A DNA stretch of 64,000 nt from assembly GCA_045837725.1 (NCBI GenBank), contig JBEWZL010000145.1:62001-126000 (forward strand), read 5' to 3'. The notes beneath the pieces are model-generated. The model was not told where the DNA came from, did not search any database, and saw nothing but the letters and a program-made list of their open reading frames with translations. The stretch's first letter is position 1; each line of letters opens with the position of its first letter. This DNA comes from Vermamoeba vermiformis. Lineage: Eukaryota. Positions 1-23,547 of the stretch are shown piece after piece. The position numbers and the translations under genes were made by a program.

Positions 1-210
1 ACTAAAACAAACAAATCATCACACATTAAAACTAAGTACCAATTTTATTTTGTGAGCAGAGTTAAAATACGAGTAATAAGTATTCAAAATGGCAGTCAGT
101 ATACAGTGGCTCCACCAGACAAGTGCATTGGCGAGTTGCACAAATTTAGGATAATATCAAAGGCCGATGAACAATTTGCCGCTGTTGTCTTACAACGTAA
201 TAAGAAACTA

Positions 211-252
211 ATCGAAAGGTATTGTAAAAACCCAGTTGGGTATATTTCATTT
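211..252 (+). repeat. Left terminal inverted repeat, preceded by TSD ACTA at 207-210
   Basis: ATCGAAAGGTATTGTAAAAACCCAGTTGGGTATATTTCATTT; its reverse complement matches 6339-6380 with 2 mismatches. Confidence 0.92.
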
Positions 253-263
253 ATTTTAGATAA

Positions 264-3200
264 TCATTTGCTCAATCTCTTCTTTTCATAGTCAGCCCAT
301 ACTTCATTCTTGCTTTGGTCTGCATCTATGAAGCAATTACGTGGCTCCCAGGACTGTTGTCCTCCATCCCAAAGTACCAGCCATTCTAACTTACGTCCAA
401 CTTTTCGGTGGTCTATAATACTTTTAACTACCCATTCTGCCTCATCTGCAAACAAAAATGAGTTACAATTAAGTATAAACCTACGATTTACCTTCAACCT
501 GTCGTTTACGCTTCTTTAAATTGACCATTGTTGGTTCTTTTTCTGATGAGACCACAAGCTCTGGTACTTCACGTTTAACTTGGCCAATCTGGAACAAATC
601 TGTCACAACTTTCACTTCTTCTGTTCTCTCCAGACCTTTGTAATATTCAATGCCCTGTAATGTGTTAGTAACTGAATACTAAAGTACAATCCTCACCTTT
701 TCAGAAAGAAATTTAGATGTCTTTGTCACTATTGTGGCTATCAACTCCTTGGACACAGGGTTTGGTTGAAGTGCTATAGGTTGGGCTGATGGAGAATGAC
801 TAAACACAGATTCTTCAACTTCAATCCATTGTTCATCGAGAGATTTTTGTTTGAACAGGAGTGTTGGAGTGCCATCAAGTCCTTTCTTTAGCCAAAAAGC
901 ATATTTGTCTTTGTGACCACTCATTGATGAGCAGAATGTGAGAAACCACTTTTTCCAGGAAAGAATGGGCCATTGGAGTTCATGAATATACACATCCTTG
1001 GAATAGATTGACTTTGCAAATGTAATAGCATCATTCATAGTTTCAATAACTTTCCATTGGAAGTAAGTATGAAATGGTTGAAATAGTCGGTCAATATCTT
1101 CATGTGTGTGGCCAGGTTGTAAATAATGAATGAAAACCTCTTCAAACCACTCATTGTGCACTAGTAATGCTGCAAATTGAAGCAAATATTGATTTTTGCC
1201 TTCAGCTGCACTGTTATCAACTTGTAAATACAGTGTTGTTGGTCTATTTTGTGGTTGAATTGATAGCAAAGATTCTTTCAAATGATGGAACAGGAGTGAG
1301 ATGTAAAAGTCTGCATCTGCAATGTAATCAGACTCCTTGAAAAACACTAACTCTTTCTTGTTCAGCCCATGGTTAATGAAGCCTACAAAGCTTGCTTGCA
1401 AAAGATTAATATTAGCCCATTCTTTTGGCATTGGATGGTGCTGAGGAAGTTGAAAACTGCCACTTTTGTCTGTAATGATGCTCATCTTCAAAAAGGGTTG
1501 CTTAATGGCAATATCTGTTCTTTGCCGATACATCTGCCTGTCCTTTGTTATATAATCTATGTGTTCATTCATCTGCTGTTTCAATTGCAACAGCTTATCT
1601 TCTGAAGGGCACTGTAGTCGCCGTTGTTTAATCAATAAACAGGTTGAGCACTTGCCAAGTCGAGTCTCCTTTGGTCTTTTAACATTCTAAAATCTTTAGC
1701 AAAATTGAAAGATGCACATAGTAACTTACTGCAAACCATTTGCGCTTGACCTGCTTGAAAGTTTCATAGCTTGGTGTGTCAACTCCTGGGTGAAGATTGG
1801 CAAATTCTCCAGAAAACAGATTGTACCATTCCTTCACACTTGCATTGGTTAGCAATTGCAGTATCAGAACAAGAACTTACGTCATGTGTGATGGTAAGTG
1901 AATTTCATCTTTAGTTGGCACATAATCACCATATGTATTGCAATAGTTTTGGATCCAAGCAGCTACTGAGTCTCTCTTTGGGGAGTCATACACCCGAAAG
2001 CAATTACCATGCATATGAGCCTTTGTACCATTTAGGTATTGCTGCTTGCATTGAATAACCTTGTCGACAGACACTCCATAAACTCTGCAAAATGCAAGCT
2101 GACAAACTGATACACCTCCCACCAGGAAAACAACAGCTGGGCTATCAATGTTCATGTTTGTTTCAAAAAATTTCATAAGCCACTTGGTTTTCTGACTGTC
2201 ATTGAGCTCAGCCACCATCTTGCGGCTTTCCAGAATCTGGCTGGTACTGAAGAGTTCAGTACATCTAGCCTTACAACAGTTTGTAGCTGCAACTGGAAAG
2301 GGTTAGTTACATCTTATATTTGCAAGTTCTAAGTACCTTTGTTAATTGAATCAGCCCCAAGTAACTTTTGTTTTTTTAATGACTTGAGTTTTTCAGATGG
2401 AATGATATTCTTTGTTAGGATTTGGAACAGATTCTGTGAGGCAATTGGGGTACCATCTGGCTGCACTTGCAAGGTAGTAAATAGGTCTTTTGCATTGATG
2501 GCTTTTGAAACAGGTACAGAATTCTAACAAGAGTTAATGCTTAGATAAAGAGCTAAACCAGGTTAAATTACCTGTCGTTTTAAGTACACAATGTGGTCAT
2601 AATATATCTTAGATTTGCTTGTTTCAAGTGTTTCAGCCACTGGAGTGGCAATTCCTTCATTTTGCATGCCATCATAGAAATACAAGACTGACTGTTGAAC
2701 AAAATAGCAAGTAGTGTGGGCTCCAGTGCACATCATAACAGCTAATAGGTCATACTGACAATTGTTGACAGTTAAAACTGGCTCGATGGTTATATTTGGG
2801 TTGCTAAATTGCCTTTTGAGTCTTCCTAACTCGATAGTCAAAACTTGTGGCAGCTCCAATGTACCTACACAGTTTAATATCAAATTCGTTTTCTTCTAAT
2901 TGAACTTACGATGTTCAACAGGTTGTATGCCACAATCATAGCAGTTGATGGGTAGCTGGCAGTTGTAATCTGCTAAGTGGTTGAGTGCAGCTTGGAGTGA
3001 GAGTGTACTGTCAGTCAGTTTTTCTTCAACAAAAACTGCCGCTTGATGAAATAGCTTTGTTGTTGTAGGACATTTGCAGTGACTAACAACTTTAAGAGTA
3101 GAGGCAAATAATGCTGATTCGGCAATTGACAGAGTTTTGAAAGCTGCCGTTAGTATTGCACCAATTGAGACGTAAGTCTTGCAAGGCACCCAACCTACAA

Positions 3201-3461
3201 CAGGACCAAGGGCATCTATCAGATCCAATTTTAATTGGTGTAGCCTGTCACTGGATAGTGGTCCATTATTAATCCAACTGGTCAATAGTTTAAAAAAGTC
3301 ACTCTCGAACTTGTGTCCAGGCAATCTTTGCAGCACTAGCCGAAGAACAAAGCCAACTGTCTCAATAGTGCATAGGTCATTCATATCTACCATTGTTAGG
3401 TTGTTCTATTAATAGTGCTTATCTTACTGTTAGAGCCCCATTGAAAGCCTTGGAATGTCAT
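264..3461 (-). CDS. Transposase fusion protein, 948 aa predicted: N-terminal USP/C19-like peptidase, Cys motifs, Sola-like DDD catalytic domain, NLS, C-terminal chromodomain
   Basis: Exons 3461-3428, 3386-2910, 2864-2572, 2523-2337, 2292-1881, 1838-1730, 1686-697, 654-492, 445-264 join through GT-AG introns into one stop-free 2847-nt frame. Motifs: YDLLAVMMCTGAHTTCY..YFYDGM, CCKARC, KCSTC, QVDNS/GKN/GHTHEDID, KKRKR, EWVVKSIIDHR..WLVLW..SWEP. Confidence 0.85.
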
Positions 3462-3576
3462 TTTCCTGAAGTAACAGTATTAACGAGCTGCACATTAATA
3501 GTGATTTTTAAAATCAATACGGTTGATCAATTTTGTATCATTATATGATGATCAATAGCATAGAATAATAAGAGTT

Positions 3577-3871
3577 GTTCGGCAAAGTAGTGCTGTTTTA
3601 CATCAGCAGCAAGAGGGCTGATGATACCACTGTGAGCCCCTACGATTTTAGCTAGCCATAACAGTGCCATATATATATTAGATGCAATGAATAACAGCCA
3701 GCATTATATTTAGTTGAGTTCGGCAAAGTCGTGCTGCGCGCGCAGTTGAAGTTAAAGTCACATAACGTCAGTGTTGGGCAATCATGATTTTTCTTACCAA
3801 AATCAATTGCATATATAAACTACATGAGGTATTATAATACCATATATATACTTAATAGAGTTCGGCAAAGT
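3577..3871 (+). repeat. Three exact copies of GTTCGGCAAAGT spaced 141 and 142 bp
   Basis: Copies start at 3577, 3718 and 3860 in the spacer between the two transposon genes. Confidence 0.8.
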
Positions 3872-4707
3872 CTAGGTAAGGCACAGAAATTGTCAAAACA
3901 GATGGCCCGAGAGAACTTTACTTGCATTAACTCAATAGTCCAGCTACTGCCATTACTAATAGCATAAATAATTGTAAGCACAATGACTAGGGATAGGAGT
4001 GACTTCAATTCTCTTTTACTCATGAGTAGTGGATCTTGTCAGATCTAGATCGGCAGAACTGAACTAGCAAAACTAGCTTTAAAATATATATCAAAGCATT
4101 AGTATTGCTCATTGTATATGTACAAAGGCATATACCATGTTTGAAACAATTTGGTTAATTAGTAATGATACTATAGATTGAAAACCCTCTAACGGCAAGG
4201 ATTTGACTGGTGCACGAGACAGAACAGATACTAGGCCTTTTGAATATGCAATTATCAGCCCCAAAATAATAGATATAGGATATATATAATATAAGCAGCA
4301 TACATATGTTATTATTATGTATTATGTTGATACCTAACAATTTCCGAGCTGGATATGAAATTATGCCGATCAATTTTCTCCTCAAAAATTCAAAATAGCC
4401 ATTGAACTAGCATATTTAAATTATTATAAAGCATATATAATTATAAATTGATATATGGCTTCATATGTAATAATTTCCGAGCAACATGAAAAGTTAAATC
4501 CACCTTGACTTACATTAGTTTTGAATCCATTGAGTTGTCTTGATAATGATGTGTTGATTGAGGTATATAATAGGTGATCTGAACTATAGGTGTTGTTTAA
4601 TGTTATTATTGGAATGAAATAATGGTCAGATAACTTCTCAGTAGCAAGAGCCCTGGTTAATTTCCTTTTATGGGTAACCAAATCCAATTGTCCTCGGAAA
4701 TCATTAC

Positions 4708-6176
4708 ATGAACACCACAATGAGTGAGGATACTGACAAGGTATTAATTGACAACCCTACTGCTGCATCAGTTGACAGTGAAGCCCAGCAGCCAAAGCAA
4801 AATCCCCCGCCCAGTCCAAAATCCACTCGGGAATCATTAATAGCTGGTAATTAACTCTCTTAATTATTCTATAATTTTCCCAACATTATGATGTCTCTTT
4901 ATTTATAAGGAAACTAATTTTTAATGGCTAGAAGAAAAAATTGAGTCCCTCGATCCTGATCGGCAAACCAAAATTCCTATTGGTAATTCCAATAATGAAG
5001 GTACATATTAATTTATTATTGTAAGTATTACTCATACATAAATCAATTATAGTAAGCAATGACAGTGTCCAAGAAGAAAAATCATCCTTCGGCGGGCTGA
5101 ACTCTGCCGACAACAAAGGTAAGTAATAAGGCATTGTTGGATCAACTCTGACTTGTTGCTGATTTAGAGGTATATACTGAGTTCTACAAGTACCACGGAG
5201 AGCCTTGGAATGGCAATTATTATTGTAAAGTGACTCGGCGGGTAGATGACTTTGCTGTCGAAGTTGGAGATACAGTGGTTGTAAAAAATGTCATTGGCTT
5301 GCACACAGTGCTATTCATCATTCGCAATAAGCAATTCAACAAGGTTCTCCTTGCAGATCCTTCCCTTAAATCTGTAATTGAAGTCAAGTTCAGTGACGTC
5401 GAGTCAGTTGAAGGCAAAGCTAGCAACAGTCAAAAGGAGTGTCTGGATGAATTGTTTAAGGCTTATTATGCAGCAAAGGTATGTCAGAAACAATATATAC
5501 CTATTTATTTACATTGTCCAGACTAGAAAAGTCTCTCCAAAGCCTATTGTGAAAACAGAGCCAGCAAAAAAGGCTTCTAGGACCCAGCCAGTACGTGCCT
5601 CAAGAACACCGGTAAAGCCTGCTACACCAAGTAAAAAAGGTAGCAAATTCGTTATATCGATAGGTTTTGACAAAGACATTTACAGGAGCAAGCAAGGGAC
5701 TTGTTGCTAAAGATCAGAAGAGACCTACTGCTGTAGTAGAGCCTTCTTTGGTCAAACGACGACAATTGCAAAGTTTGTCTGCATCAGAGTCAGAAGATGA
5801 AGTTATCCCACTTAAGAACAAGACAAAGCCCATTCACAAGCCAATGTTACCAAAGCTCCAACCACCACAAGCTGCACCCACTGCTGCCACTAACACAACT
5901 GAATTAGTTGGAGCTCCATCTGTCCACTTGAGTCCTCAAACTACAGGACTGCATAGTACAGGATTGACACCCAGCCCAGTTACCACTTCTGTGTTGAATA
6001 CTGCAAATAATTCAAGCAACCAATATCTCCAAAGTATACTTGAATTGCAGCAAATGCAGCACAGACACTCTATGGCACAGCAACAGGCCCAGTTCATGAC
6101 AATTCTACAACAACAGCAGCAAGCAGAGGCAGACAGCTCATTCCGTACTGCCTTCTTACTCGCAAACAAACTTTGA
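4708..6176 (+). CDS. Second transposon gene (6 exons): possible BAH-like domain, K/P-rich linker, Q-rich C-terminus
   Basis: Exons 4708(or 4720)-4846, 4932-5000, 5053-5118, 5168-5478, 5522-5639, ~5686-6176 splice in frame via GT-AG introns; lies inside the TIRs. Confidence 0.7.
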
Positions 6177-6338
6177 TATTTATTCTGGTGTTAGAAATTT
6201 AATAAACTGAAGTTCAATCTTACATCAAGACAAGCAAGCTGCACACTATGCTATTGCAAAGAACACTATGGTTGACCTCCTAAGATCTACAATGAAAAAG
6301 AAAGATCATCTCTATCCTCAGAAGAACAATAGAAAAGC

Positions 6339-6380
6339 AAATGAAATACACCCAAATGGGTTTTTACAATACCTTTCGAT
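6339..6380 (-). repeat. Right terminal inverted repeat, followed by TSD ACTA at 6381-6384
   Basis: AAATGAAATACACCCAAATGGGTTTTTACAATACCTTTCGAT then ACTA. Confidence 0.92.
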
Positions 6381-6384
6381 ACTA

Positions 6385-6938
6385 TTATTGGATTTTGAAA
6401 GCTTTTTATTATAGAGATCTCAATTCTTTTTTTACTAACAATCACACTAACACCATTCTAATATTATATGCTAGGTAATGAGATTGCAGTGATTCAACTT
6501 TATAACCTAACCAAGCAGAAGTTTTTGTGGGAAAGAAGGTCACCAAATACAAGATATGAAATTGATCCAAATGAGCCCAAATACATTGAAGTTCATAAGT
6601 CTGGAGACCATCATTTGTTGGAGTATGATCTGGAATCAAATCAAGTTATTTCAAAGATTTGTGATAGCACTGATTCCCTGAGTGAACTACATTATTTTGG
6701 ATCAAACATCATTGTACAAGCCACTGCTGAGGTTAAAGTATTAATCATTCTACTGTCATTTAAAGTAATTTAATATTTTTTGTAGATTGTAAACAGAGAT
6801 TCACACATGGTGTGCCTGGACTATCATTTTGGAGAGCATTTTTCCATTGAGTCAGTACATGGAGCTGCCAACACTGTTGTTTTGGAGGTATTAGAAGAAG
6901 AATCAAATCCTAACAGACTAATACTTCTAACCTTTTAA
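6385..6938 (+). pseudogene. 3' part of an uncharacterised gene, probably interrupted by the transposon (5' part around 52-210)
   Basis: Open frame 52-210 runs into the left TSD. Exon-like segments ~6475-6731 and 6786-6938 lie on the same strand after the right TSD. Confidence 0.35.
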
Positions 6939-13885: not shown

Positions 13886-15354
13886 TTAACAAGTACACGT
13901 CGCTGCTTTGCTTGTGACTTGAATTTTCTTGGGATTGCACGTTATATTGCTGCACTGAGCTTTCAAGCACGGCAGCGAGAAGGGTGAGGAGGTGCAGTCG
14001 GTATCGTCCACGTACTTATACGCTTTGATACCCGGGTTCTGCTCATTGATCAAGTCCACGTATTGCTCTCGTGCAAAAACAGTGTTGGGCTCTAACACGG
14101 TAAATGCTTTGTTCCTCACGTAGGCGTTTATACTGGCCCGGGGGATCGGCATAAACGGAACAACTGAGACACGCATGCGAGAGCCCAACATGTGACTAAA
14201 TTTACGAAAGTTAATTGGTAATTATCATATATACATGCGTTTACGTACCTGAACGCCGAGTTGAACATAGTATCAGTGATATTTTGAACAAGGCCAACAG
14301 TATCAAAGTATTCGTGCCACGGATCTCCGATGACGACCTTGCGGTACTGGTCAATCAGTCGCAAGATGTCTTCCTGTTGAAAAATTAATATTACGGATAC
14401 GAGTACTTATACTACTACTTACTCTATGAATATGGTTCTTGGAGACGCCGTACTCAAAGAAGTAAATGGCTTTTGAGCCATCGAGTACTCTTCGGCCGGG
14501 TTGGGACAGATGTCGAACGTCTTGGAGGACTTGGAAGATGTCAGAGGTTCGACTCAACTCTGCGTTCTTGAAGCGAATAATAGTATATTCGCATTCTTGA
14601 ATAATCTGCGTAAAGTCAGTAAGTAAGTACTGAAGTTCAAAACCCAAAGCAAATTAATACATCGTAAACTTTTTGTCGGATCGCATCCACTGACTCTGCT
14701 GCTATATCGATGGTAGCTACATTTCCCGCATCGCTTCCAAACCAAACTGCATTATCAGTTAATCAGTCGTTGTTATTTTGGCGTCTAATGTAAATTTCGT
14801 CTAACTTGAAAGAGCGACGTACCCTTGAGACTTGCGTCGATCAGTTCATGCTGCCCCCAATCCTCATCGGATTGGTAGACGAACATCATTATCATTGCAG
14901 AGCTATCGTGGGATTGCGATTGCGGGGCCTAAAAAAGACTACTCAGTAAAACTGAATTAAAAGCTAATCGGTATTAATTTCGAACAAAGTTAGTTTAAAG
15001 TTTAACAATGACGTCCCTTCCAGTTTAAACACATCCGGTAACAAAAAAAAAAAGAATTAATAATTTACTTACGAATCGTTCATCAAAATGAAAGCGTAGC
15101 CTTGGTATAACAAGGTGATCAAATGGAGTTTGATCATATCTATGAGCGAGGTCAGTCAAAAAAAGGAAATTCGTAGGATCCATTTTTGACACGCAGGGGA
15201 TCGCGTTGACTTTGGCACGAGGTTGAGGTCCATTTATAGGTGGCATTGATTTATCGTCGCGGAGTATCGTTGGCTTTAAATGCCAAACCTTGATTACGGC
15301 CATAGCTGCCAATGTAACTATCACTGCAAGCAAAATTCGGACGATTAAGCTCAT
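13886..15354 (-). CDS. Cassette gene A, copy 1: type II membrane torsin/LAP1-LULL1-like AAA+ pseudo-ATPase
   Basis: N-terminal TM; 6 exons; no Walker A; ECEYTIIRFKNAE, DGSKAIYFF, MLGSRMRVSVVPFMPIP; Cys-rich tail. Confidence 0.7.
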
Positions 15355-15541
15355 ATCTATAGGTATTGACTCGTATGCTAAGGGCGATAAATAAAATAGT
15401 TTCTGAAATTGAAGAATTGGAATTTAAATTGCTGGAAAAAAATCCGGCCAACTTTTTTCAGCTAAAAAGAATAGAAGGCGACCGGATCAAACCTCAAATT
15501 TTGATTTAATATTCTATTGGAAGCACGTTACTAATAATCGA

Positions 15542-17148
15542 ATGATGCCGGTACATCAGGCAAATCAAAACCAACCGCAAGGGCAGGCACCAGGTCAACA
15601 AGGCCAGCAACAACCTCCAGCGCAACTGCAACCTGGTCAAATAAATTGGGGGTCCTACATCCAGGCTTACGTTGCTTTCTTGAGCGTGGTCGTTTATAAA
15701 TATTGGGCATCTGTCCAATATTTTATGTTTAAGTATATCAGCCATAACTATTCGGACTTTATGGCCGTATTGTCCATCCTGTTAATATCGTCTCCTGTGT
15801 AAGTTAATTGATTTATAATTGTGATCGATCCCGCCTCAAAGGGCTCGTTTTAACGTTATTTAGATTCTTCTACCGCAAGCGATGGAACAAATACATTCAA
15901 ATGGCTATGGCGACTATTTTTTTGGGGTCCATAGTGCTGGCATTCGTAAGTTCTTCTTATTCTTTTAAAAAAAAAGAATTCTGAGTTAACACGCTATAGT
16001 TGGCTGCACCTTCACAAGCCCACGTAGAAAGAAGTTTGGCAAACCAATCTATAGGAAATGATTTCTCCGACTTCGCCGCCTCGCTGTTAAATGAAACTCA
16101 CCGCATCTACGGGTTTTTTGGCAGATCTGGTAAATGATTGAATTAACATTTAAAATCTAAACTCGTAAGACTTATTCATTATTTTATTTAGGGACGGGCA
16201 AAACTAATATTGCAGAAAAAGTGGCGAATATTGACGCAACGATGTTAAAACGTGCTATCAATTCCCGAGTGTTTTTTTTGCATAATCAAGCGTCAAAAGT
16301 AGTCGCTGATTTTTTCAATCCGAATATTACTGATTCGATGGCTGGTTGGATACAACCTGGTGGCGGATGCGCAATGCCAAAATGTTACTTGATCTTGGAA
16401 GACTTGCACCTTCTGTTAGACTACTATTATTTGAAGGCCAAACAACCCGAGCAAGTCGAGCTGTTCTTCGACAAACTTCAGACATTGGTGCGCGAGAATC
16501 CTCGTGCAGTAGTCATTATGATCATCGAAGTGACTGCTTTCAGCCGCAGCATTGACCAATCAAGAATTGCGAATGTTACATCGAATGAAGATCTTCAGAA
16601 AGAGCTCAAGGAGAGCAACAGCGTGTTCTGTCGTTTGGGCGATGAATACTTGTCAGTTTACTTCAAAGACGTGCACCGTGACTACGGTCAGTGGAAGGCA
16701 GCGATGCAAGTACATCTCAATGAACTCGTGCATAATACGATTCTACTGTCACAAGCACAAGCGCAGCCTTTCGACAAGGGTGCTAAAATATTGTACGTAG
16801 AAATGGAGTTTTTACGCGGTCAATTGGACTTACTAGTTGCATAGGTTCGACGAGTCAGTGTTTAAGAGGAGCCGCAAATTAGTCTACGCATTCAAAGACG
16901 TCAAAAAGTTCTTTCTACCGCGCTTGTACTGGAAGATCATTGACGCGAACACACCACGTGACTGCACCCCTGCAAATGGTCGTATTCTCACTGTATACGC
17001 CAAAGGAGATTTTAATGTTAAGTGCGAGCCTTGTGGTTGGATTTGCCAATTTCAATACTCAGATGAGTGGACTAAATTGTACGAACAAGTGTCGCGGGTA
17101 CCTGTCGAGTACTTCTTCCGGACAATGGACATGCTTAAAATACTGTAA
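15542..17148 (+). CDS. Cassette gene B, copy 1: multi-TM-anchored AAA+ ATPase (torsin/Clp-like)
   Basis: Q-rich N-terminus, 2-3 TM segments, intron-split Walker A GFFGRSGTGKT, Walker B-like CYLILED; 5 exons. Confidence 0.78.
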
Positions 17149-17255
17149 TAATAAAACATCTTTCTACTCCTTCTTTAGTACGAGAAACTATTTTGCAGAT
17201 AAACTTTTATTATGTGCCGATGGTTTCAAAAACATTCTACAAGTGACGGGCGAAC

Positions 17256-18782
17256 TCACTTTTCATCCACTTTTTGCCTGATGTACAAGCTCTTATTTTT
17301 ACATTTCCCTAATTCAGAATCGGGGAGTTTGAAATGATAAAATCCTTTTGGTTTCTTGGCAGCCTCATCAGCTTTGAGAAATTTTTTAATCTGGTCAAGA
17401 GCGTCGTCTGTCAACATTTTGTTGGGCTTCATCGAAAGCCAATTTCCTGTCGTATTGATTGTTTTAAATTTGCATTGGGATGCACCCTCAAATGATTTGA
17501 AGCTGATTTCTAGTGCACTCGTGGCAGAGGAAAGGTTTTGACCTTCGCTCGATTCATCTTTTGATTCTTCATTATTGTTAACTTGTGCTTCGGAGGTCTG
17601 ATTTGTGGCTACAGTAATTTGGTTATTGCTGGGATGGTTCGGAAGTTCCTCTCTGGCTTTTTCTTGATCTTGGCGAGCACTTTCAGCATTGTTGCACTGT
17701 GTCTCATTCTTCTGACGGGCGTCTTCAGCAGCTTCGCGCTTTTTTTCTTTATCTAGGCTAGCGGTTTCAGCATCTTGACGCTCCTTTTCTTTAACTTGGC
17801 AAGTTTTTTCGGCATCGTCGCGCACGTTCTCATTTTTCTGACGAGTTCCTTCAGATGTTTCACGAGTGCTTTCAGCACCTTTACGCTCATTTTCAGCATT
17901 TTGACGCTCTATTTCTTGATTTTGGCGAGCACTTTCAGCATCGTTGCGCTGTGTCTCATTCGTCTGGCGAGTATCTTCAGCTGTTTCACGCTTTGTTTCT
18001 TTAGCTCGGCGAGTGTTTTCAGCTGCTTCACGCTCTGTCTCTTCATCTTGGCGAGTTTTTTCGGCATCGTCGCGCCCCTTCTCAGTTGTCTGACGAGCTC
18101 CTTCAGCTGTTTCACGAGCGCTTTCAGCATTTTTACGATCATTTTCAGCATTTTTACGATCATTTTCAGCATTTTGACGTTCTATTTCTTTAGCTAGGCG
18201 AGTGTTTTCAGCCTCTTTGCGCTCTTTTTCGTTCTGCTCTTCTCGTTTCAGCAGATCTTCCAGTATTGTTCGTTCGTCTTTGCGGTTGCGCTCTATCTCT
18301 GATAATCTCCGGTTCATTGTGCGTAAACGGGAGCTGTTCGTAGCAACGGATATCGCCAGAATACATATGATAGCAGTTTGAACCGAATTTGAATCCAGAT
18401 TCTTGATCAAGAAGAGTATTTTTGATACAAAATTCTCGGTCGTCGTGAATTTGTTATTAATATTGTTGCTATTAATATCTACAGCCATATTATCCTCATC
18501 CGTAGAGCCAGCTAAGCCACTTATGTATTCTTGGCAGATCTTCATTTTTTCTTTCTGTTCTGTGTCGAACTTTAATTGCTGTTCCTCATCGCACACATCA
18601 TAAAATGTTTTTGTGGCCAAAGTTTTGCCTGGCGGAAGGCATCCAGTTTGACAAAGTTCGCAAAAACGCTGACACGCTACCGGCGGGTCTCCGCTGGAGC
18701 AAGCTTGTGAGTAGAGAGACTCTGCAGAAGAGTGTACGAATACATGCGATATAATTAGTATAATGAGCTGTGGTGTTATCAT
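17256..18782 (-). CDS. Cassette gene C, copy 1: intronless type I membrane protein, 7-Cys ectodomain, long heptad-repeat coiled coil
   Basis: 508-aa ORF with signal peptide, CSSGDPPVACQRFCELCQTGCLPPGKTLATKTFYDVC, hydrophobic AIICILAISVA, AExxRxx repeats. Confidence 0.85.
   Translation of the reverse strand: MITPQLIILIISHVFVHSSAESLYSQACSSGDPPVACQRFCELCQTGCLPPGKTLATKTFYDVCDEEQQLKFDTEQKEKMKICQEYISGLAGSTDEDNMAVDINSNNINNKFTTTENFVSKILFLIKNLDSNSVQTAIICILAISVATNSSRLRTMNRRLSEIERNRKDERTILEDLLKREEQNEKERKEAENTRLAKEIERQNAENDRKNAENDRKNAESARETAEGARQTTEKGRDDAEKTRQDEETEREAAENTRRAKETKRETAEDTRQTNETQRNDAESARQNQEIERQNAENERKGAESTRETSEGTRQKNENVRDDAEKTCQVKEKERQDAETASLDKEKKREAAEDARQKNETQCNNAESARQDQEKAREELPNHPSNNQITVATNQTSEAQVNNNEESKDESSEGQNLSSATSALEISFKSFEGASQCKFKTINTTGNWLSMKPNKMLTDDALDQIKKFLKADEAAKKPKGFYHFKLPDSELGKCKNKSLYIRQKVDEK
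17650..18215 (-). repeat. Coding 21-bp (heptad) repeats with a higher-order 252-bp (84-aa) period
   Basis: RDDAEKT-encoding GGCATCGTCG recurs at 17811 and 18063; AENDRKN occurs as exact tandem units. Confidence 0.85.
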
Positions 18783-19033
18783 TTTAAATCAAAGAATCAA
18801 TAAAAAAAAATCAATTCTTTTTTTTCATTCATAAAATTCCCACACACCATTTGTTATTGTAACCTTTAAATAATGAATTACAATAGCGAAGTTTGATCTC
18901 AAATTTACCGTTCGGATTTGACACTTCAGCATGTCCTCTCGATCCAAGTCATTGAAGGACGATGCTCAATTCACCAAAATCTTCTCAAACGTTGACTTTC
19001 GGTGACTGGTTTGCTACTATTTACAACGTTTAT

Positions 19034-20528
19034 TTAACAAGTGCATGTCACCGCACTATCCGTGACTTGGATCGTCTTCACGACGTTGTTACCACAAGTC
19101 AGTTTGCTGCACTGAGCTTTCAAGCACGGCAACGAGAACGGCGAGGCATTGCAGTCAGTGTCGTCCATGTACTTATACACTTTGATACCTGGGTTCTTTT
19201 CCCGGATCAAGTTCAAGTACTGCTCGCGTGCAGGGAATTCAGTGTTGACTTCGAACGTTGTGAATACTTTGTCGTCCAAGTAGGTCTTGATACTAGCTTG
19301 AGGAATGGGTAAGAATGGAATAACTGAGACGCGCATCCGAGAGCCCAACATGTGACTGCACGGTAAAAGTTGAAGTTAGTGACGCGGATGTGCATATTTA
19401 TGGAAATCTAGACTCACTTAAATGTCGAGTTAAAGATGGTGTTAGTAATATTCTGCACGAGGCCGACGGTATTGAAGTATTTGTGCCACGGATCTGCTTT
19501 GACAACCTTGCGGTACTGCTCCATCAATTTCAAAAAGTCGCCCTAAATACGAATTAGCTTTGGCCATAGAATAATATCCAACGTACTCTTTGAATATGAT
19601 TTTTTGCAACGCCGTATTCGAAGAAGTAAATGGCTTTTGAGCCATCGAGTTCTCTTCGGCCGGGTTGGGACAGATGTCGAACGTCTTGGAGGACTTGGAA
19701 GATTTGAGGCGTCAGGCTGTGTTCTGCGTTCTTGAAGCGAATGACAGTGTAATCGCATTCGAGTAAGATCTAAAAATAGAGCACGGGGTGTTAGCTGAAA
19801 AAAGTGCCGCAAAGATTGACCCGATCCACGTACCTCGTAAATCTTTGCTCTAATTTCATCGATTGATTTAACTTCTGCTATATCAATAGTCGCTACATTT
19901 CCAGCCGCACTGCCAAACCAAACTACAGTAACGGTGTTAAGGATCTGTCAGATCATTTGTTCCTACGTACCTTTTAGAGTTGCGTCAATGAGTTCGTGTT
20001 GACCCCAATCCTCATCAGCTGGATAGACAAATAACGTTATCATGGCAGAATTATCGTGAGATTGCGCATGTGGTGCCTAATAAAGAATAATCAGACCTCT
20101 TCAGGACAGGTTATTAAATGCATTGGTTATTTGTAAAATTATCATAGATATTAAATATGGTATTTTAATGGCTACCAAGTGAGCGCTATGACGGCTAAAA
20201 CAAAAAATAATGAAGAATAATTATTTATAATTTTACTTACAAATCTTTCATCAAAGTGGTACCGTAATCGAGGTATAACAAGATGATCAAATGCAGTTTG
20301 GTCGTATTTCTTTGCTAACTCCGTAAAGCGCTTGAAATACGTCGGATCCATTGTTGAAACGCAAGGAAAGCGTTTATTGGCTTGGTTGACTTGAGGCTGT
20401 GGCTTATCAATAGGTCTTTTAGGTGATCTGGCTATGGGAATGGCTGGTTTTGTCGGCCAAGCCAGCAACACGATCAAGGCGATCGTAATTGCGCCACCAA
20501 TCAGCAAATTACGAATAGTAGGGTTCAT
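19034..20528 (-). CDS. Cassette gene A, copy 2: torsin/LAP1-LULL1-like pseudo-ATPase
   Basis: Paralog of 13886-15354: N-terminal TM, LAKKYDQ..LRYHF, DGSKAIYFF, MLGSRMRVSVIPFLPIP. Confidence 0.7.
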
Positions 20529-20749
20529 ATTTTGATATATTCTATATACATATGTTTGGTGGTTTTTAAAACAATAGATACTGAATTCTATTTGCAAAAA
20601 ATATTTTGCTGACGCGTCACAGGTCAAAAAATCGCCCTAACTTTTTTCAGCGAACGGATAGAACATTTATGCCGTGCCTAGTCATCAGTCGACATATTAA
20701 CGTAGACTTATTGATCAAAGGCAACAAGATCCGCATGATTATACAATAA

Positions 20750-22449
20750 ATGTTGATGGCAGGACAGCAACCAGGCCAAAACCAACCCCAAGGACAGGGT
20801 CAAGGCCAACAACAAGGCCAACAGCCGCAAGGCCAACAAGGCCAGGCACAACAGCAGCCTGCTCAACAAGGAGGTTGGCGGCTAATTGAGGGCTACATTT
20901 TCTTCTTGATCTTCACAGTTTCAAAATATTGGGATTCTATCCAGTATTTTATGTTTAAAAATATCAGTCAAAAATACGCCGATTTTTTGGCCTTATTATT
21001 TGTCCTAGCAATTGTTTCTCCAGTGTAAGTATTTTTTATTGAATTTAGATCCAGCTTTTAATTTGATTCTATGGCCTTATAGACTTATTTATATTAATTG
21101 TTAACATATTTTCTGTCAGATTTTTCTATCGCAAACAACTGAACAGATACATCCGTCAAGGACTGTATGTTTTATTCTTCGCGTCAATAATCGCGGCATT
21201 TGTAAGTAAATAGACCTATGTATAATTAAGAATGCTTATTCTTGCATACTCAACCTAAAATTTATTTGTTGTAGTTCACTGGAGCTTCTGTCAAGCATGT
21301 AGATAGAGAATTAGCCAATCAAGCTGTCGGAAATGATTTCAGAGAATTAGCTTCTTCAATGGTTAATGAAACGCATCGTATATATGGATTTATGGGACGA
21401 TCAGGTAAGCTAATCTTTTTTTTTTGGCAAATTTCTTTTTCCAGATCTGCTCAATTTTTGAGGCTTTCAAACTAACCAGATTATTAGGAACTGGCAAAAC
21501 TAAGACGGCTGAGAAATTAGCAGAAGTCGATTTTACATTGATGAAGCGCCACAATAATGCACGCGTGTTCTTGTTGCACAATCAGCCGTCAAAGTCAGTC
21601 GAGGACTTTTTCGATCCAAGCGACGCAGATTCATTGACTGGCTGGATCCGCAACGGCTGCGTATTACCTAAGTGTTACTTGATCTTAGATGACTTGCACC
21701 TTCTTTTGGATTACTACTACTTGAACCAACAACCCGAGCAAGTCGAGCTGTTCTTCGACAAGATCCAAGACTTTGTTGACGAGCATCCTCGTGCAGTAGT
21801 CATATTTATCATCGAGATCACGGCTTTTAGTCGCAGCGTTGGCCAATCGAGGATCGCACACGTTGAAACGAGTAAAGAGTTGCAGAAAGAGCTCAAGGAG
21901 AGCAACAGCGTGTTCTGTCGTTTGGGCGATGAATACTTGTCAGTTTATTTCAAAGACGTGCACCGTGACTACGGTCAGTGGAAGGCTGCGATGCAAGTAC
22001 ATCTCAATGAACTCGTGCTCAACACCATGTTGCTGTCACAAGCACAGTCGCAGCCTTTTGACGTGGACACCAAGATTGAGTACGTCACTGCTAACATGCC
22101 TAATATGTTAACGTTGCTAATGGGTACCTTAAATATCAGGTTCGACGAGTCAGTGTTCAAAGAGACTCGTTCACTGGTCTACGCATTCAAAGATGTCAAA
22201 AAGTTCATTTTGCCGCGCTTGTACTGGAAGATCATTGACGCGAACACACCACGTGACTGCACCCCTGCAAATGGTCGTATTCTCACTGTATATGCCAAGG
22301 ACGATTTCGAGGTCAAATGCGAGCCTTGTGGCTTCATGTGTCGGTTGCGCCATTCAGACGCGTGGACCAACATCCGCGAGCGACTGTCACTCGTGCCTGT
22401 TGAGTACTTTTTCCGCGGCATGGACGTGACACGTGTGTTCTTGACTTAA
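20750..22449 (+). CDS. Cassette gene B, copy 2: membrane-anchored AAA+ ATPase
   Basis: Q/G-rich N-terminus, TM segments, GFMGRSGTGKT, CYLILDD; 60-nt intron at 22080-22139 matches copy 1. Confidence 0.78.
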
Positions 22450-22588
22450 TCTGTGCCATATTGTGATATATAGTGTAGTAGTCGGTATAGTAAACTTTGT
22501 GCATAGTCTTCTTTTAACCACATCCGTTTCCGTAATGAATTTTTATTTACAATTCTTTTTACATGGCTAAGCTATATGAAACTATTAC

Positions 22589-23317
22589 CTATTGCTCCAG
22601 TTCGTGATGAATTTCACCGTCACTCGTTTGTTCGGTGTTATTAGGACCTGAAGTGTTGTAGGGCCCATCCCACTTTTGTTTAATTTCAAGAGGAGGAAAT
22701 TCTTCTATATTAACTTCATTATTAACATTAATATTGTTAGTTGGTTCCGCGTTGTTATTCGCTTGAGTTGCTTCTTCACGAGCACGTTCTTTGGCTATCA
22801 TAAGTTTTCGCTTCTCTGCTCGGATCTGCGAGATCAATATTACAATAACGGTTATAAATATGCCAATGATAGCCGTGAATAATTGAAGAACAATTGAAGG
22901 AGTGTTCTTGATCTGGTTGTACACGTCATCAATAATTTGGGTTGAAGTTGCTACGTCATCTTCACGGCTCGTTTGACCTCCATTATCATTACCATTATTA
23001 TTGGAATTTTTATTATTGTCAGGATCAGTTTCAGAACCATCAGTATGCCCATCCATGTATTCTTGACACATCTTCGTCTTTTCCTCTCGCTCTTTTTCAA
23101 ATTGTAATTTTTGCTCTTCATTGCACACGTCGTAAAATGTTTTTGTAGCCAAAGTCTTGCCTGGTGGAAGACATCCAGTTTGACAAAGTTCGCAATATTG
23201 CTTGCAAGCTGCTGGCGGATCTCCACCTGAGCAAGCTCGCGAGTAGAGTCCAGGCTCCGCAGTGCTTAATACAAATAGTGTAGATAAAATCACTAGAATG
23301 ACGTGTTGTGCTTGCAT
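22589..23317 (-). CDS. Cassette gene C, copy 2: intronless type I membrane protein with 7-Cys ectodomain and short tail
   Basis: MQAQHVILVILSTLFVLSTA signal, same Cys spacing as copy 1, TM IVLQLFTAIIGIFITVIVILI. Confidence 0.85.
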   Translation of the reverse strand: MQAQHVILVILSTLFVLSTAEPGLYSRACSGGDPPAACKQYCELCQTGCLPPGKTLATKTFYDVCNEEQKLQFEKEREEKTKMCQEYMDGHTDGSETDPDNNKNSNNNGNDNGGQTSREDDVATSTQIIDDVYNQIKNTPSIVLQLFTAIIGIFITVIVILISQIRAEKRKLMIAKERAREEATQANNNAEPTNNINVNNEVNIEEFPPLEIKQKWDGPYNTSGPNNTEQTSDGEIHHELEQ

Positions 23318-23547
23318 GGCGGGAAAAAATAACAAAATAACAAAAATCAATTCAATTTTGGACCACGCATTGTACAATAGGAATATATTCAACGCTTATT
23401 ATGCACCTTCGTATTTGTTCCTAAAAATATGAGCACGCGCCACATTATTGGGTTTCTTTTAGAGGAATTCGCGAAGCGTGGCGAAGAAAGGGCCAAAATC
23501 GGATTTTGGCGTCTTTTTATTCACGTAATAGCTCAAGTACAAACACA

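Follow-up and report, generated by a model that had tools for sequence, protein, structure and literature searches.

Sola transposons occur in protists and other eukaryotes, encode DDD transposases, and leave 4-bp target-site duplications (TSDs). According to PMC5751038, Sola was among the superfamilies that had no Pfam model in 2017, and an Ectocarpus Sola1 element carrying on the opposite strand an accessory gene, with ParB plus a methyltransferase, is described in PMC12477816. Proteases of the ubiquitin/SUMO system have been recorded on transposon proteins of several groups, namely, Ulp1 and OTU in Ginger1, Ulp1 in Mutator-like elements, and OTU in Helitrons (PMC2836005), and the same paper mentions, in one sentence, a Trichomonas vaginalis protein with both transposase_11 (pfam01609) and Peptidase C19. 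Gypsy integrases bear chromodomains by which insertion is guided into heterochromatin (Gao 2008, cited in PMC6839031 and PMC12477816). The present analysis concerns a 64,000-nucleotide stretch of Vermamoeba vermiformis DNA (contig JBEWZL010000145.1, positions 62,001 to 126,000; the whole stretch is hereafter called the window) and an element of 6,170 bp at window positions 211-6380, with two divergent genes inside. This element is likely to be autonomous and to have been active recently, as a cut-and-paste transposon belonging to a small family in a microbial eukaryote of water or soil with very short introns; its predicted transposase combines a core of the Pfam family DUF7869 with a ubiquitin-specific protease (USP)-fold module and a chromodomain-like module.

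Termini, insertion site and related copies

The element is bounded by terminal inverted repeats (TIRs) of 47 nt, the arms of which are 91% complementary (43 of 47 positions identical, and 40 of the first 42), and the same four nucleotides, ACTA, stand outside both arms (Table 1). A preliminary description of the locus had reported a perfect 4-bp TSD, TIRs matching at 40 of 42 positions and an intact transposon between them; each of these was recovered, with full arms somewhat longer than had been given. The terminal 24-mer was found in the 64-kb window at just the two element ends, and 100 dinucleotide-preserving shuffles yielded 0.00 matches. Both ends are corroborated by other copies with different flanks: the alignment of the metagenome copy L002 (~75% identical) reaches window base 211, beyond which L002 continues as unrelated sequence, and a contig of the DNA run X5 departs from the element directly behind position 6380, where 231 nt of different flanking sequence follow.

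The window copy is located 14 nt inside a putative host intron (window 197-6474, from a donor GT at its first base to an acceptor AG at its last), and the host exons around it join in frame (...AAVVLQ / R / NEIAV...). The element would have lengthened this intron from 104 nt to 6,278 nt, in a genome with introns of ~45 nt, which suggests a recent insertion.

Further copies were recognized in several forms. The X5 unitigs within the element had a depth of 1185-4007 and many single-base variants, compared with a depth of 371 for the flank contig, and this excess is only a rough sign of many element copies. The sequences P0015 and P0020 are fragments of further copies, 96-99% identical to the window copy, and the locus L003 contains a TIR-bounded short derivative of 1,092 bp (L003:1244-2335) without coding capacity, the TSD of which is ACTA/ACTT (three of four positions). 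Judged by their reading frames, L001 and L002 are decayed copies of a sister lineage. Relatives were sought in prokaryote genome contigs and viral contigs, and none were found there. In one variant copy of X5, 126 nt of the subterminal region (window 6194-6321) are swapped for 20 other letters.

It should be noted that the near flanks of the short element in L003 resemble those of the window copy (window 200-210 and 6381-6394), with 11 of 11 nt in common on the left and with ACT plus TTGGATT shared to the right of the element; flank sequence at a greater distance is unrelated. The likeness could be due to a target-sequence preference or to a common short host motif. On account of these flank bases, termini located 11-14 nt outside the present ones were also considered; they were rejected, since the outer bases form no inverted repeat and the flanks of L002 and X5 differ.

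A host gene or a domesticated transposase that is not mobile would agree with the strong purifying selection found in all domains (see below), but this explanation is highly improbable in view of the TIRs and TSD, the at least three different flanks at the same termini (window, L002, and the X5 contig), the several-fold excess of X5 depth over the flank with its many variants, the decayed copies and the short TIR-bounded derivative, and the position of the element inside an intron of another gene. The element is intact and probably still mobile.

The predicted transposase and its modules

The transposase gene lies on the minus strand and comprises nine exons separated by eight GT-AG introns of 41-48 nt, with a predicted product of 948 aa. 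The first model (939 aa) consisted of eight open segments, the GT-AG introns between which measure 42-48 nt and have branch sites resembling CTAAC; exon 1 (34 nt) was added after alignment to the related loci L001-L004, the differences in this exon being mostly synonymous, and the donor, branch site, and acceptor of intron 1 (41 nt, 3427-3387) are conserved in these loci, as assessed by eye. The final model gives exactly the nine exons and the 948-aa frame of the preliminary description, and all the motifs listed there are present, namely, NDLC (C17), CKC (C115/C117), CYDC (C160/C163), GAHTT (H220), and YFYDGM (D235). Between the window copy and L002, the exons are 68-91% identical and the introns 53-69% identical, and the indels are found in introns, the sole exception being a gap of 2 nt in exon 2 that corresponds to the frameshift breaking L001 and L002. 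The splice sites compared are kept in L002 at seven of seven donors and six of seven acceptors (the 45-nt intron has CAT in its place), and in L001, all five introns that could be compared are kept. Three RNA-seq runs (X18-X20, with the same species label as X5; ~46-48% of each was read) gave 0 reads over 7 kb, even in the host exons, which says nothing on expression or on the splice junctions.

The order of the modules in L002 is the same, namely, USP-like domain, linker, Cys-rich region, DUF7869 core, and chromo tail (92% amino acid identity). The ratio of nonsynonymous to synonymous substitution rates (dN/dS) was calculated between the window copy and L002, with regions set on the 939-aa model, at a dS of about 1.2, which is near saturation (Table 1). 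The low ratios in the USP-like, core, and chromo parts suggest that all three modules were kept by selection during the divergence of the copies. The predicted joining of the exons and fusion in one protein are supported by conserved splice sites and selection, and the one-protein layout of USP fold, transposase, and chromodomain-like module proposed earlier is supported at the sequence level as one conserved reading frame.

It is very unlikely that the 948-aa frame is an artefact of the model and that the protease-like part belongs to a gene or transcript of its own, in tandem with the transposase on the same strand. This possibility is favored by the linker exon 4 being the least constrained (dN/dS 0.27); however, exons 3-5 are free of in-frame stops once the introns of 48 and 44 nt are removed, both introns around exon 4 keep GT..AG in L001 and L002, and the identical layout is found at ~75% DNA identity. 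Moreover, the gaps between exons 3 and 4 (48 nt) and exons 4 and 5 (44 nt) leave no room for a terminator and a promoter.

Exon 7 matched the Pfam family DUF7869 (PF25273) with an E-value of 3.8e-39 and 134.7 bits over profile positions 2-190 of 192, so that the profile search for this family proposed in the preliminary description placed it far above the gathering cut-off of 26. In a three-sequence alignment of the window copy, the L002 copy, and a 30% identical relative of 708 aa (P0001), residues D577, D661, E700, and D703 (D73, D157, E196, and D199 of exon 7) were invariant, and the spacing of the candidate acidic residues was about 84 and then 39-42 residues. These acidic positions fit a DDD or DDE nuclease, and the DUF7869 core is predicted to be an RNase H-like DDD/E nuclease. 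A phmmer search with the core against the PDB gave no solved relative, and word-indexed protein searches with the core gave few relatives (1 of 1701 and 6 of 5972 candidates), none of which were informatively named; in the searched literature, no paper names DUF7869. The distant DUF7869 proteins P0001 and P0025 (569 aa) carry DUF7869 alone in Pfam, and the USP-like and chromo modules therefore seem specific to the lineage of the window element. Exons 5-6 and exon 8 of the transposase had no match in Pfam.

The placement of the element within a superfamily is tentative. The Sola-type hallmarks seen at the window copy are the 4-bp TSD and the TIRs, and we take a non-TTAA 4-bp TSD together with a D-D-D pattern to fit Sola best. 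It is quite possible, nonetheless, that the element is not Sola and belongs to another or unnamed superfamily with a core now called DUF7869 by Pfam: the third acidic residue may be E700 instead of D703, and a 4-bp TSD is also found in other superfamilies (Ginger1, piggyBac and Kolobok at TTAA). Against this alternative, the transposase matched none of the Pfam models of Tc1/mariner, hAT, MULE, PIF/Harbinger, piggyBac, CMC, Merlin, P, Transib, and rve at E ≤ 1.

The N-terminal ~260 aa matched no Pfam family, and the read-through sequence P0002 matched none at E ≤ 1. Weak Pfam matches to ZSWIM1-3_helical (0.031), Clusterin (0.021), and DUF1922 (0.19), each in 1 of 12 family members, were taken as chance. 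A HMMER search of 1.84 billion representatives (E ≤ 1e-3) gave six matches, all of them short open reading frame (ORF) fragments of related copies, and a word-indexed search with the family alignment gave additional fragments, among them P0016, an ORF of 273 aa that is 54% identical, covers the whole domain, and reads through an in-frame intron. In the ESM Atlas, exon 3, in which GAHTT and YFYDGM are located, was nearest to clusters that carry UCH. The best score was 0.95, with 192 shared features, for a cluster in which 11% of the members have UCH, and 15 of the 30 matches are from this set; a second cluster, in which 100% of the members have UCH, scored 0.87. This result is a language-model lead only.

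The AlphaFold model of the window read-through N-terminus from seven sequences was unusable (predicted local distance difference test (pLDDT) 41.5). The template-free model from 12 sequences with P0016 first had a pLDDT of 63.1 and a predicted template modelling score (pTM) of 0.68, with good confidence for the stretches 1-94 and 200-270 and poor confidence for the residues between them. A Foldseek search with the P0016 model gave 17 matches at E ≤ 1e-3, all of those listed being USP or USP-like, with USP15 (4.4e-5) in the lead, followed by USP18, USP4, USP12, USP35, and USPL1, down to 1e-3. In VIA-align, which is independent of Foldseek (48,161 chains), the best match was USPL1 (Z 16.5, 195 aligned residues, root-mean-square deviation 3.2), followed by USP35 (Z 15.1), USP12 (Z 14.8), and USP2 (Z 14.1). 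The titles of the entries at ranks 1-36 (Z 10.2-16.5) denote USP domains, with two exceptions that we regard as USP-like (4msx_A at rank 27 and 6ah0_W at rank 32), and coronaviral papain-like proteases, which have the same fold, come after the USP entries. Thus, a thumb-palm-fingers USP fold of the N-terminal domain is supported by the model, and the papain-like fold on which the earlier proposal depended agrees with these matches, at low confidence in the fingers.

The candidate active-site residues are C17, H220, and D235, and C115/C117/C160/C163 are candidate zinc cysteines. In VIA-align, residue 1 of the model pairs with residue 446 of USP35, which would place the family Cys (model residue 5) on USP35 residue 450 (entry title C450S) if the first five pairs are gapless. 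According to the P0016 model, the Cys is at the start of helix 2-20, the His is just before strand 224-230, and the Asp ends strand 233-238. Among the homologues, the Cys is conserved in 8 of 8, each of the four zinc Cys in 9 of 9, the Asp in 6 of 6, and the His in 4 of 5 as counted, or in 4 of 4 without P0017, the tail of which is intron read-through. The Cys-His-Asp set is described here as a candidate catalytic triad.

The USP-fold domain might instead be a dead pseudo-protease that binds ubiquitin, SUMO, or another partner or serves as a scaffold, like the USP-like domains of Pan2 and Sad1/USP39, which is considered somewhat unlikely. The Pan2 pseudo-ubiquitin-hydrolase entries match the P0016 model at Z 10.2-11.8, and the entry 4msx, titled as an essential yeast splicing factor, at Z 12.2, whereas the active enzymes USPL1, USP35, USP12, and USP2 rank above these pseudo-enzymes at Z 14-16.5. 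Similarity to active USPs at the profile level is wholly lost, the Cys comes after just ~16 residues, and a typical USP Cys-box sequence is, in our view, unrecognisable in the domain; yet all true homologues examined (23-96% identity) have the three candidate residues Cys, His, and Asp, and an Asn stands five residues before the Cys, where USPs place the oxyanion Asn.

For the C-terminal tail, a phmmer search with exon 9 against the PDB gave CBX1 as the best match (E 4.6e-4), and 26 of the 30 matches at E ≤ 1 were chromodomain proteins (CBX1/2/3/5/6/8, HP1, CDY/CDYL, and cpSRP43), the other four being Ycf48-like. The chromodomain proposed in the preliminary description is therefore retained in part, as similarity to solved HP1/CBX chromodomains, and falls short in its Pfam gathering score and in having two of the three cage aromatics.

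A number of observations weigh against the reading of the element as an autonomous, recently active transposon with DUF7869, USP-fold, and chromo-like modules. The splicing and the fusion are predicted from conservation. Pfam UCH (PF00443) and UCH_1 (PF13423) matched 0 of the 12 N-terminal family members at E ≤ 10, a negative outcome of the Peptidase_C19/UCH profile search suggested at the outset; phmmer and profile searches of the PDB with the N-terminal exons or alignment gave chance-level matches and no USP, no known USP was among the six HMMER matches from 1.84 billion representatives, and exon 2 had no usable match in the ESM Atlas. The protein that was folded is the 54% identical relative, with 15 intron-encoded residues, and the middle third of its model (the zinc-ribbon "fingers") has a pLDDT below 50. 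The match of exon 9 to Pfam Chromo (PF00385; E 0.0065, 16.8 bits) is under the cut-off of 25.1, as is that of the L002 tail (16.5 bits), and in the CBX1 alignment, exon 9 has Trp at the first and second cage positions and Gly at the third, the assignment of these positions, including the third (Phe in HP1), being our assumption. The L001 and L002 copies are broken by the common 2-nt frameshift in exon 2, and L001 additionally has an in-frame stop in exon 3. Finally, the window copy is located in a short intron of a gene, in a gene-dense window, and not in obvious heterochromatin.

If this favored reading is correct, the 47-nt TIRs would be bound by the DUF7869 core, which would cut the element out and insert it anew by means of a staggered cut of 4 bp, and the chromodomain-like tail may tether the transposase to nucleosomes. 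The USP domain might strip ubiquitin or a ubiquitin-like modifier (e.g., SUMO) from the transposase, histones, or repair factors at the donor or target site, and such deubiquitination or deSUMOylation could stabilise the transposase or steer repair, as proposed for Ulp1 and OTU of other transposons. The second gene would encode an accessory protein. A bolder version, in which the transposase is both a chromatin "reader" and an active ubiquitin/SUMO "eraser", would have the tail dock on marked nucleosomes and the USP-fold domain strip marks there, so that insertion choice or escape from silencing or degradation hinges on the editing of host marks. This version is unlikely, and the reading or editing of chromatin or ubiquitin marks by the transposase is pure inference. 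If it were true, the protein would be the first transposase of the cut-and-paste type in which the two modules occur together, and the near-identical flanks at two independent insertions (window and L003) could be explained.

Second gene, spacer and neighboring sequence

The second gene is divergent from the transposase gene and had been overlooked in the preliminary description; in L004, it is conserved in the same divergent position. Its predicted protein consists of one constrained domain of ~100 aa, a basic Lys/Pro-rich linker, and a Q-rich C-terminus. The dN/dS of exon 4 (about 104 codons) was 0.10, that of the N-terminal 90 codons, which are unconstrained, was 1.15, and that of the remainder was 0.28, with the Q-rich C-terminus well kept. 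The protein had no Pfam family above the cut-off and no PDB match, and a match to LpqV (E 0.0052, 17.4 bits versus a cut-off of 25) was taken as chance. No similarity between exon 4 of the second gene and the C-terminus of P0001 was found using BLASTP.

The spacer between the two divergent genes is presumed to be a two-way promoter. It contains the repeat family D1, with three copies of ~26 nt at 3564, 3705, and 3847 (window 3564-3872), 141-142 nt apart, the core of which, GAGTTCGGCAAAGT, is also kept in related loci. The D1 repeats may be regulatory or transposase-binding sites.

Elsewhere in the window, host sequence of about 5.2 kb is tandemly duplicated (window 13938-18716 versus 19095-23248, 71-86% identity), with paired ORFs at 16161-16844 and 21409-22449 and at 17256-18788 and 22589-23395. 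A 126-nt coding tandem repeat was found within window 17657-18234.

Table 1. Features of the element and its borders in the window; dN/dS values are from the comparison of the window copy with L002 on the 939-aa model (dS about 1.2, near saturation)
Feature	Position	Strand	Content	Basis or remark	dN/dS
Left TSD copy	207-210		ACTA	same 4 nt outside both TIRs	
Left TIR	211-257	+	47-nt arm	on 3' side of transposase gene; L002 copy stops here	
Transposase exon 9	264-445	-	chromodomain-like module, residues ~890-948	stop codon 264-266	0.071 (chromo tail)
Transposase exon 8	492-654	-	linker with basic KKRKR stretch	splice model	0.177 (residues 827-880; 0.18 for exon 8)
Transposase exon 7	697-1686	-	predicted DUF7869 catalytic core	Pfam match about 841-1422	0.040 (core)
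Transposase exon 6	1730-1838	-	Cys-rich region before core	splice model	0.104 (exons 5 and 6)
Transposase exon 5	1881-2292	-	Cys-rich region before core	splice model	0.104 (exons 5 and 6)
Transposase exon 4	2337-2523	-	variable linker	splice model; least constrained part of transposase	0.274
Transposase exon 3	2572-2864	-	predicted USP-fold domain	fold model, residue conservation	0.114 (USP-like part, 257 codons)
Transposase exon 2	2910-3386	-	predicted USP-fold domain	fold model, residue conservation	0.114 (USP-like part, 257 codons)
Transposase exon 1	3428-3461	-	predicted USP-fold domain	fold model, residue conservation	
Whole transposase		-			0.095
Spacer between divergent genes	3462-4707		1.25 kb	67-70% identical to related copies, conserved blocks	
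Second gene	4708-6176	+	6 exons, 397 aa	GT-AG model, open frame	
Second gene exon 1	4708-4846	+			
Second gene exon 2	4932-5000	+			
Second gene exon 3	5053-5118	+			
Second gene exon 4	5168-5478	+			
Second gene exon 5	5522-5639	+			
Second gene exon 6	5686-6176	+			
Right TIR	6334-6380	-	47-nt arm	X5 contig departs after 6380	
Right TSD copy	6381-6384		ACTA	perfect match to left copy	

Comparison with described systems

In the searched literature, no transposase with a USP fold, a DUF7869 or Sola core, and a chromodomain is described; Repbase, Dfam, and supplements were outside this search and may catalogue it. As far as this literature goes, the novelty suggested in the preliminary description applies to the three-part combination and not to the protease-transposase fusion as such, which was already noted in Trichomonas vaginalis (PMC2836005). 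Transposons have repeatedly taken up Ulp1 and OTU proteases, and the family of the window element adds a third protease fold, USP, which it puts together with a chromatin-reader-like module in one polypeptide under strong purifying selection. An intact element that looks recently mobile offers a compact testable case for the role of such a protease in transposition, target choice, and transposase stability. Furthermore, the USP-like domain is a near-orphan in sequence (6 relatives among 1.84 billion) and yet is modelled as a minimal USP, which may bear on the evolution of the USP fold.

The element resembles Sola1, Sola2, and Sola3 in being a TIR-bounded cut-and-paste transposon with a 4-bp TSD and a large transposase with three conserved acidic residues that may form a D-D-D(E) pattern. 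It also has an opposite-strand accessory gene, as does Ectocarpus Sola1; however, the Ectocarpus gene (ParB plus methyltransferase; PMC12477816) is unrelated to the second gene found here, and none of the searchable texts ascribes a USP-fold or chromodomain module to Sola elements.

With Ginger1, Mutator-like elements, and Helitrons, the element shares a clan-CA-type protease for ubiquitin or ubiquitin-like modifiers, putative in the present case, either as a fusion partner of the transposition enzyme or encoded alongside it, as well as the same proposed role, namely, that of the ubiquitin/SUMO pathway in transposition or repair. In contrast to these, the protease of the window element is of the predicted USP fold and not Ulp1 or OTU, is N-terminal to DUF7869, and is accompanied by a chromo-like module. 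The Trichomonas vaginalis C19 protein also has a USP-family domain with a DDE transposase, but differs in its transposase core, which is of IS4/IS5 type, and in a C19 domain that can be recognised by sequence, and no chromodomain is reported in the accessible text. The integrases of chromoviral Gypsy elements have a C-terminal chromodomain on a DNA-integrating enzyme, as proposed here; the window enzyme differs in being a predicted cut-and-paste transposase with two of three cage aromatics, and the copy analyzed is in a genic intron.

Among solved structures, the closest to the N-terminal domain is USPL1 (PDB 7zju), a compact SUMO-specific isopeptidase, which was the best VIA-align match (195 of 251 residues aligned) and is similar in size at about 250-270 aa. 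The sequence identity is 10%, and a common fold does not show a common substrate; meanwhile, unlike USPL1, the domain of the transposon keeps four Cys at the zinc-ribbon positions.

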